From a virus (taxonomy: Duplodnaviria; Heunggongvirae; Uroviricota; Caudoviricetes): 24,774 nt of DNA. Every line of letters starts with the position of its first letter. The stretch's first letter is position 1. Of the stretch, positions 18,824 through 19,626 are shown one piece after another. The notes under the pieces are model-generated. The model did not search any database and was not told where the DNA came from. It saw only the letters and a program-made list of their open reading frames with translations. The stretch lies in the IMG/VR virus record IMGVR_UViG_2778261448_000010, positions 1-24,774 of that record, one strand, 5' to 3'. The position numbers and the translations under genes were made by a program.

Positions 18824-18924
18824 TGTTGGCTCCGTTTATCCGTTAAAAGGGATATCAGTTAAGTTATCCCGTGTAGGGTATAAGCCATTATCAAAGCCAC
18901 TCAGTAAGGAATGGCTTTTGTGAT

Positions 18925-18960
18925 GGCAATAAAAAAGGCCGCCTGAGCGACCTTTCATTT
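18925..18960. terminator. Terminator-like hairpin with flanking A/T tracts
   Basis: AAAAAAGGCCGCC-tga-GCGACC-TTTCATTTTT forms an imperfect stem with one wobble, and has T-rich runs on both strands. It lies just downstream of the DUF551-like ORF. Confidence 0.4.
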
Positions 18961-18970
18961 TTCATCCGTT

Positions 18971-19189
18971 TTAATCATCTGGGTAATTAAGCGGCATCCA
19001 GTGTGTAACCTTGCTTGCTCCTGAATCGATGAATGCCTTTGTTCTCTGCCAGTAAGAGCCCATACATGATAGTTTGAACACGTCACCAGTATCAGTAAGA
19101 GCTATAACCTCTTTAGACCACATCCCTTCTTTGCTTTCTGGTAGCCGGTGTTCAACATTGATCCATTGGTTTCCGTTATCATCCATCAC
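18971..19189 (-). CDS. DUF551-like small phage protein
   Basis: The 72-aa ORF ends ...THWMPLNYPDD, a pattern typical of DUF551 proteins. The ATG start is more likely at 19186 than the GTG at 19189. Confidence 0.5.
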   Translation of the reverse strand: MMDDNGNQWINVEHRLPESKEGMWSKEVIALTDTGDVFKLSCMGSYWQRTKAFIDSGASKVTHWMPLNYPDD

Positions 19190-19626
19190 AACCTCGTCTA
19201 GTTGTTCGCCATAGATTCAGTGGCAGGCGGTGACGAGTCCGCTTTTCGGGAGCTACCCTAGCCACTGCTTGATTCTATCCGATGTCTTTCCATCAGTCCG
19301 CCACCACAAAGAATCTTTTTTGCCATAAGGCAGGAGGTTCATCTTTCAGTGGCTGCCAGTGTTATTTCCCCACTTACTGGCTTGGGTTGCTTCGTGGTAC
19401 TGCCGTTAACTGGTTGCCCAGAATAAATTCCGGTTTCATTATCAAGCCCACCCGTAGATAGGCTTTGTAATGAACTGGCTCTTATCTCAACGCAGCCCCT
19501 TACCGCGCGCCAGATGCTCAATATCAAGCATCAGCAATGAGATGTTTAATCTGGATTCACTCCAGAAGTGATCACCACCCTGTCTACAGAGCCAGATGTG
19601 AAGGATGATGAGTAAAATTATCGCTA

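Follow-up and report, generated by a model that had tools for sequence, protein, structure and literature searches.

An int-alpA RNA that probably serves as translational leader in a moron-like late-region cassette of a P22/Sf6-like prophage

The stretch of DNA considered here, called the window in what follows, comprises the 24,774 nucleotides (nt) of IMG/VR record IMGVR_UViG_2778261448_000010, positions 1-24,774, from a Caudoviricetes virus. Between the lysis gene Rz and a gene for a DUF551 protein, an initial annotation had described positions 19190-19626 as a coding gap. On comparative sequence evidence, this interval is a composite on the minus strand, made up of a small open reading frame (ORF) of the gp65 type, a spacer of ~207 nt and the 5' end of a 352-nt cassette that is inserted in the spacer. 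The "gap" cannot be treated apart from the DUF551 gene: an RNA and this gene make up one inserted cassette. The RNA belongs to the int-alpA family (Rfam RF02996), and we consider it probable, with some reserve, that it acts in cis as the translational leader of this moron-like cassette, and that it is neither a free small RNA nor a decayed gene.

The int-alpA motif occupies 19268-19206 of the minus strand, which also carries the phage genes. It was found by a covariance-model scan of the kind that the initial annotation had recommended, and it coincides with the nested inverted repeat noticed there. In the whole-window Rfam scan it reaches 45.1 bits (gathering threshold 35.8, E = 1.7e-6, full model 1-71) and is the only match above threshold, so that the repeat far exceeds what chance would produce; our own covariance model scores it at 65.7 bits. 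By these matches, the element is a member of an already described RNA family and not new in kind. On the plus strand, the repeat consists of CAGTGGC (19218-19224), GCGG (19227-19230), a loop (19231-19238), CCGC (19239-19242) and GCCACTG (19261-19267). On the minus strand, the same letters form a three-stem junction. P1 joins 19268-19261 with 19224-19217, GCAGUGGC being paired with GCCACUG; P2 occupies 19258-19248 (GGG-UAGCU-CCC); P3 occupies 19242-19227 (GCGG-ACUCGUCA-CCGC) and presents ACUCGUCA as its loop, hereafter X, at 19238-19231. The junction strands CUAG, CGAAAAG and CCUG are conserved, with all their nucleotides present in the window, and the minimum-energy fold of the leader reproduces P1 to P3. 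A hammerhead-like three-way junction was rejected on inspection, as the order of the conserved junction strands differs.

Relatives were collected with the pattern CGAAAAGCGG-N(2-18)-CCGCCUG, which recovers at least 120 viral-contig loci, combined with a structural rule that demands NUAG at the right distance and at least 5 in-register P1 base pairs. The rule is passed by 77 of 123 viral-contig matches, which reduce to 58 non-redundant instances. A scan of bacterial genomes with the same pattern, which served as a false-positive control and not for taxonomy or int/alpA context, yields mostly chance matches, only 4 of 121 passing the rule, so that the false-positive rate is ~3%. All of the 12 diverse loci that were scanned again with Rfam are RF02996 above threshold. 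In 37 distinct sequences, covariation amounts to 0.492, against 0.116 in shuffled alignments (0 of 500), and 86.4% of the cells pair, against 64% in shuffled and 33-50% in slid controls; the inner five P1 pairs are enforced by the selection rule, the P2 and outer P1 pairs are not.

The motif also keeps a fixed spacing to start codons. A co-oriented ORF follows in 57 of the 58 instances, with a median of 31 nt between P1 and its start (interquartile range 30-39). The cargos themselves fall into 37 clusters, among them several HNH endonucleases, a ParB_N-Dam protein, DUF1376, DUF6387, a SAM methyltransferase, Rha and DUF551, and many further cargos are small proteins without a Pfam match. An integrase or AlpA was encoded by none of the 20 cluster representatives scanned. 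In the window, the motif stands 20 nt before the start codon of DUF551. Together with its membership in a structured-RNA family, this placement supports the RNA or regulatory option left open by the initial annotation.

The leader downstream of P1 contains two sequences that are complementary to loop X. Site A, UGGCGA at 19211-19206, into which the Rfam model extends, is a potential pseudoknot partner or decoy (predicted X-A duplex -7.1 kcal/mol). Site B, GACGAG at 19198-19193, overlaps the Shine-Dalgarno sequence GAGG (19195-19192) and gives a predicted X-B duplex of -10.5 kcal/mol. Both site B and the Shine-Dalgarno sequence would be displayed by a hairpin P4 (ACAACU-AGACGA-GGUUGU, 19205-19188), directly after which comes the ATG at 19186. 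The arrangement recurs throughout the family: site A is found 3-18 nt after P1, and site B overlaps the Shine-Dalgarno sequence. Moreover, X, A and B change together by lineage. The combination is UCGUCA/UGACGA/GACGA in enteric phages and ACCUCA/UGAGG/GAGGU in a Pseudomonas phage, and further lineages have UGCCUUG/CAAGGCA/AAGGCA and UCCGCA/UGCGGA/GCGGA.

This complementarity was quantified with permuted partners. The loop forms 10.18 paired nt with its own leader and 6.12 +/- 0.58 with those of others (33 unique loops); the A window gives 4.97 against 3.13 and the B window 5.16 against 3.75. No permutation equals the observed value, in 10,000 for the whole leader and in 20,000 for each window, although the related sequences are not independent and these counts are not true probabilities. 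At least 5 base pairs are found for A in 50 of 57 leaders, for B likewise in 50 of 57, and for both in 44. In the zone ahead of the start codon, the assigned B site ends at a distance of 2-13 nt from the start.

The pairings X-A and X-B are mutually exclusive because X uses overlapping nucleotides for both. Judged by complementarity, the leader therefore has what is expected of a riboregulator, namely alternative, exclusive pairings that involve the Shine-Dalgarno sequence. We propose that the P3 loop ACUCGUCA, held out by the three-stem junction, serves as an anti-Shine-Dalgarno element. In one conformation, X would pair with A in a pseudoknot just 3' of P1 and leave the ribosome-binding site free; in the other, it would pair with B, cover the GAGG in the P4 loop and thereby block the initiation of DUF551 translation. 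The invariant junction (CUAG, CGAAAAG, CCUG) would then be a likely sensor or effector-binding site for a signal, be it a protein, a ligand or temperature, that sets the balance between the two.

Transcription of such a leader likely starts inside or at the foot of P1, because -10 hexamers are enriched at a fixed position 5' of the UAG of the motif. Of 52 unique upstream sequences of relatives, 17 have a hexamer that agrees with TATAAT at 5 or all 6 positions and ends 8-15 nt 5' of this UAG; the adjacent 8-nt bin holds 5 such hexamers, and the other bins mostly hold 0-2. In the window, a candidate promoter element of this kind is TAGAAT at 19277-19272 (minus strand), which ends 3 nt 5' of P1, and transcription from it is postulated from this placement.

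A number of points weigh against the interpretation as a translational leader, in addition to the enforced P1 pairs and the non-independent sequences already mentioned. No convincing -35 element accompanies TAGAAT, the scan for the sigma-70 consensus did not flag it, and a strong -10-like hexamer occurs in only about one third of the relatives. The fold energy of the single sequence is not exceptional with respect to shuffles (z = -0.86), nor is P1 significantly more stable, and because of this the support for the structure comes from comparison and not from thermodynamics. A small hairpin holds the Shine-Dalgarno zone in its loop in 30 of 56 leaders (54%, against 31% in shuffles), which is a moderate enrichment only. 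Loop-B complementarity partly reflects that pyrimidine-rich loops fit any Shine-Dalgarno sequence, an effect for which the permutation against the Shine-Dalgarno zones of other leaders controls. The leader mechanism as such, though well supported by the comparisons, is one that we infer, and its ON conformer and its signal are postulates of the model. Finally, Rfam types RF02996 as "Gene; sRNA".

This label leads to the first alternative, in which the motif is an independent small RNA (sRNA) of ~65 nt that acts in trans, its P3 loop pairing with the ribosome-binding sites of mRNAs elsewhere. Besides the Rfam type, the -10-like element just 5' of P1 would suit such a gene, and in some relatives (for example contigs L024 and L127) P1 is followed by a U-rich, terminator-like tract. 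In the window, however, P1 is followed by AAUCUAUGG, without a run of U. The motif stands immediately 5' of a co-oriented ORF in nearly every instance, at a narrow distance, and the loop is a better match to the Shine-Dalgarno sequence of the gene behind it than to those in other cassettes. Tandem copies within one contig, furthermore, differ in their loop. A trans-acting sRNA is therefore unlikely.

The leader is the first part of a cassette that can be delimited by comparison. The phages ST64T and epsilon34 lack 352 nt at this place: in the alignment, their sequence ...GGAAAGACAUCG (GACATCG) is joined directly to the region upstream of DUF2560. The comparison of the slot among related phages, another step proposed in the initial annotation, thus reveals an insertion at 19279-18928 (minus strand), with a flanking spacer that is 96-98% identical. 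The insertion opens with GAUAGAAUC, which is followed by the int-alpA motif, the Shine-Dalgarno hairpin and the DUF551 ORF (71 aa, 19186-18971; PF04448, 9.4e-10; WP_000342560.1), and it closes with an intrinsic terminator. DUF551 is an uncharacterised portable domain that is also present in Ea22 variants of Stx phages and in YfdS (PMC10834534). The GC content of the cassette is 45.7% against 48-51%, a small contrast that is not used as evidence.

The terminator, GGUCGC-UCAG-GCGGCC followed by U6 at 18952-18931 on the minus strand, has a folding energy of -18.1 kcal/mol (z = -3.98) and forms the 3' end of the cassette. Neither it nor TAGAAT was flagged by the consensus scans, and folding and comparative position were used in their stead; the consensus terminator scan in particular did not report 18952-18931. 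The same stem, with variable 4-nt loops (UCAG, UUAG, UAAG, UACG), follows unrelated cargos. With its GC-rich stem of 6 base pairs, its 4-nt loop and its U6 tract, it is a textbook terminator, placed midway in the late operon with the lysis genes on one side and the terminase genes on the other. Late transcription presumably passes it by Q-type antitermination.

Between the conserved ends, the content of the cassette varies. By Rfam, the motif in related loci ends 20 nt before the start codon each time. Three E. coli prophages have DUF551 as the gene downstream, and two of these also carry Rha or GIY-YIG genes as insertions farther upstream; in E. coli EC01307 the downstream gene is a non-homologous ORF of 80 aa and in Salmonella phage BIS08P22 one of 89 aa. 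Homology between these cassettes passes through the ATG and then stops. In E. coli 13KWH46 (L261, 901-1370), the 96-nt leader is 100% identical and the terminator and flank are identical as well, with two unrelated small ORFs in between. Conserved cassette ends with swapped, unrelated ORFs inside are seen in L261, L009 and L004. Diverged copies (79-86% identity) reside in structural operons of Enterobacter phage Tyrion, Pantoea phage PA-1, a Klebsiella phage and a Pseudomonas phage. From sequence, a co-oriented ORF comes directly after the leader in Tyrion, PA-1 and the Pseudomonas phage, and for the Klebsiella phage the record annotates one. In Tyrion, it is a 125-aa DUF551 ORF that begins right after the leader. 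For this protein (L011, 2584-2961), the start of gp03 is probably 2584, the annotated 2719 appearing too late, and its N-terminal half resembles the 58-aa stand-alone cargo of another cassette (L086).

Arrays of two cassettes in tandem, ~500-600 nt apart (341 nt in L024), exist on contigs L029, L047, L067, L115, L122, L061, L098 and L024. Each copy has its own motif and a different P3 loop, and HNH-type endonucleases are among the cargos. A few other contexts were observed. On L024 (8795-8937; see also L036 and L192), an int-alpA motif within a cluster of tRNA genes begins only 3 nt behind one of them, and 3' processing of the tRNA could generate the 5' end of the motif exactly at P1. The same contig carries a type II hammerhead ribozyme, and L036, which also bears int-alpA, a Proteo-phage-1 RNA. 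In the decayed prophage of E. coli GPEC1240 (L260, 489-985), a truncated Rz has been fused by a deletion directly to the central part of the leader region, and downstream DUF2560 and gp4 are truncated too.

Such mosaicism could also be explained at the level of DNA, with leader and terminator as boundary or recombination sites for cassette exchange, possibly as folded single-stranded DNA (ssDNA) of the attC type, and without any function as RNA. Cassette homology does end at the start codon and return at the terminator with different ORFs between, and mosaic joints are found on the flanks of the motif. In addition, Weinberg et al. indicate that their method also detects ssDNA motifs such as attC (PMC5737381). 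The motif is nevertheless always oriented as its cargo ORF, and the complementarity of loop and Shine-Dalgarno sequence, with its in-step changes, has no role in a DNA site. No integrase is adjacent in the window, and homologous recombination at conserved functional flanks accounts for the mosaicism without a dedicated site. We regard a pure DNA element as a still weaker candidate than the sRNA.

A terminator or attenuator of the late operon, or a terminator on the plus strand (GCGG-loop-CCGC-TTTT), is very improbable. The hairpin and T run seen on the plus strand by the initial annotation speak for it, as do the terminators annotated nearby in the records of epsilon34 and phage L and a terminator-like site at 19316-19337 (plus strand). 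The plus-strand stem, however, has just 4 base pairs and was not flagged by the scan, the covariance-model match is confined to the minus strand, and neither a conserved junction nor covarying P1 and P2 stems are features of terminators. Besides, the cassette already has a strong terminator of its own.

Upstream of the cassette lies the non-coding spacer (19280-19486, minus strand), in which similarity to P22-like phages is high, in the case of Sf6, epsilon34 and ST64T along the entire stretch. Phage homology runs from Rz to ~19281-19276 at 96-98% identity and then diverges. Sf6, CUS-3 and epsilon34 align from Rz onward and ST64T from the end of Rz; the P22 match is limited to the last ~70 nt of the spacer (19345-19276), and these 3' ~70 nt are also present in CUS-3. 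The spacer folds with -67.2 kcal/mol (z = -3.71 relative to shuffles), and its near-identity across phages leaves no covariation for testing. It contains a UACG-capped hairpin (19465-19444) followed by GATAAT (19443-19438). The latter was considered as a promoter, which is uncertain, and it pairs with CAUUAC in a predicted long hairpin. A like element, a hairpin plus UGAUAAUG, comes after the DUF551 terminator (GAGUGGCUUUGAUAAUGG) near 18885-18925 (minus strand), and on viral contigs (for example L017, L028 and L123) similar elements follow cassette terminators directly before the next int-alpA motif. This type of hairpin element could be a promoter or an RNA element. The terminator-like hairpin and T run at 19316-19337 are on the opposite strand, and at the homologous place the record of phage L annotates a terminator in the minus orientation. 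An Rfam match to Proteo-phage-1 at 19351-19386 was discarded as due to chance (16.8 bits against a gathering threshold of 42, E = 4.1).

The spacer also contains ATG 19326, the codon at which the records of ST64T and phage L let orf118 begin. In the window it opens a frame of only 22 codons, because the cassette splits the ATG from DUF2560. The DUF2560 gene starts at an internal ATG in epsilon34, in GB089 and in the window, and for this reason the 5' extension of orf118 in ST64T and phage L is probably not coding but an annotation artefact. As it stands, orf118 (L010, ST64T, 1520-1876; L258, phage L, 920-1276) looks like a DUF2560 that is over-extended at its 5' end, its first ~38 codons lying in the spacer. 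The UAG at 19258-19260 (minus strand), invariant in the CUAG junction of the motif, is the in-frame stop of the 22-codon frame. This may be a coincidence, or a way of halting upstream translation at the foot of the structure.

This probable artefact bears on the last alternative, a decayed cargo gene, which the initial annotation had put forward and which would be the remnant of a longer ORF, for example a 5'-extended DUF551, an orf118-type or a bor-like gene. Of all explanations it is the least credible. No gene remnant was found; the sole apparent N-terminal remnant, that at ATG 19326, is more simply a non-coding leader shared with the phages in which it is annotated, and with the orf118 extension probably non-coding, the interval is not a decayed gene. 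The longer DUF551 protein of Tyrion would fit the idea, but its ORF begins after the motif and does not run through it, and the region is 96-98% identical to intact phages and not degraded. The two frames listed by the initial annotation do exist, namely a featureless 62-codon frame starting with TTG (19339-19527, minus strand) and a plus-strand frame with cysteines (59 codons, 19282-19461); like a 29-aa frame, they have no Pfam or PHROGs match. Each of these rivals fits the data less well than a cis-acting leader, which is the most likely reading.

The interval is also less empty than it seemed. While there is indeed no long ORF inside it, the claim that it has no credible one does not hold: a 50-codon ORF with an ATG start lies at 19639-19487 (minus strand), overlaps the stop of Rz by 13 nt and covers one third of the interval, its start being just outside. 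The GB089 prophage of E. coli has it as an annotated gene (WP_001139680.1), as do Sf6 (gene 65) and epsilon34 (gene 67), with whose genes it is homologous, and it matches phrog_11822 (3.9e-38). Among 44 phage records, in which all homologues are at least 92% identical, it is free of stops when aligned in 42, which are those with a match covering at least 80%. The 5 synonymous and 8 non-synonymous changes are too few to establish coding, and the ORF is best regarded as an annotated, putative and as yet unproven small gene.

All genes around the interval are carried by the minus strand, in the late region (late operon) of a P22/Sf6-like prophage. The order is holin (20844-20521), endolysin (20537-20061), Rz (20064-19627) with the embedded Rz1 (19871-19680), the small ORF, the cassette, DUF2560 (18823-18581), small terminase (18501-18076) and large terminase (18079-16664). 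The GB089 prophage (NZ_CP013663.1) is 100% identical over a 751-nt query that spans the interval. For the window, the apparent coding gap after Rz is hereby removed and the DUF551 gene is recognized as belonging to an inserted, self-contained cassette. The inverted repeat, likewise, is now to be read as a probable minus-strand RNA leader, rather than a terminator or a pseudogene.

More generally, unrelated accessory genes are exchanged behind one conserved leader and ahead of one conserved terminator, which bears on the regulation and shuffling of prophage morons; the relevance possibly extends to homing endonucleases and lysogeny genes. It is tempting to go further and to speculate that int-alpA is not an sRNA at all but the sensor domain of an expression cassette that is portable and widespread among phages, with a riboswitch-like or protein-responsive junction and a P3 loop that toggles between decoy and Shine-Dalgarno sequence. 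This generalization is tentative, and we would sooner bet against it than for it. If it were true, the cassette would gate any accessory gene placed behind it, from small ORFs and DUF551 to HNH endonucleases, methyltransferases, Rha and integrase/AlpA, in phages of Proteobacteria, Bacteroidota and Acidobacteriota, and the junction would bind a signal that reports the state of the host or the phage. In any case, the comparative data give a concrete and cheaply testable model, consisting of an anti-Shine-Dalgarno loop, a decoy site and a Shine-Dalgarno sequence in a hairpin.

How does this element compare with known systems? int-alpA is an orphan Rfam family for which we found no assigned mechanism. 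In the literature searched, no functional study was found, and the name occurs in one other paper as a listing from a genome scan. RF02996 reportedly belongs to the 224 candidate structured RNAs described by Weinberg et al. in 2017, an attribution not confirmed in the main text of that work. The family owes its name to a genomic association with integrase or alpA genes. The window motif shares with it the sequence and structure above the curated threshold, the same junction and the association with phages. It is not beside int or alpA, which is a contextual tendency and not a structural criterion, but has Rz and gp65 upstream and DUF551 downstream, in a P22-like late region. The analysis of genomic context points to a cis-acting leader and not to the sRNA of the Rfam label.

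In certain aspects, the proposed leader is reminiscent of the C4 antisense RNA of phages P1 and P7 (immI), which is excised by RNase P and acts on icd/ant. In both, loops of a leader RNA are complementary to sites that are repeated within one transcript, and one of these sites covers the ribosome-binding site of the gene that follows. C4 is processed by RNase P, however, and has no similarity in sequence or structure to int-alpA; the C4 family (RF01695) has no match in the window at the gathering threshold or at E <= 10. Control of translation by alternative pairing of the Shine-Dalgarno sequence, as predicted here, is also the principle of the preQ1-II and SAM-II riboswitches, in which a pseudoknot sequesters this sequence, and of the Shine-Dalgarno hairpins that control homing endonuclease genes in phage T4. 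The int-alpA junction is conserved in a manner typical of an aptamer, and HNH genes are among the cargos. The combination of a three-way junction, a decoy site for the loop and a Shine-Dalgarno sequence in a hairpin loop nevertheless fits none of these classes.

With regard to genomic position, the initial annotation had compared the interval with the slot of lambda bor. The likeness holds for the position, an accessory slot that lies behind Rz in the late region of lambdoid phages. It does not extend to the content: bor is a lipoprotein gene on the opposite strand, whereas the cargo here is the co-oriented DUF551 gene itself. Nothing bor-like is present on the opposite strand, where the sole ORF, the 59-aa frame already mentioned, has on inspection no hydrophobic signal peptide ahead of its cysteines and is not otherwise supported. 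A further parallel is provided by the phage morons, a concept developed for HK97 and HK022 (PMC3594210) and applied to the "ant moron" of P22-like phages (PMC2629481). Like these, the cassette is extra DNA between sequences that are contiguous in relatives, has its own terminator, a candidate promoter and a slightly lower GC content, and carries a cargo that is unrelated to lysis or assembly. It differs in that it occupies the slot between Rz and terminase and not a tailspike-proximal position as the ant moron does, in that its promoter is only a candidate, and in that its 5' end is a conserved structured RNA common to cassettes with unrelated cargo.

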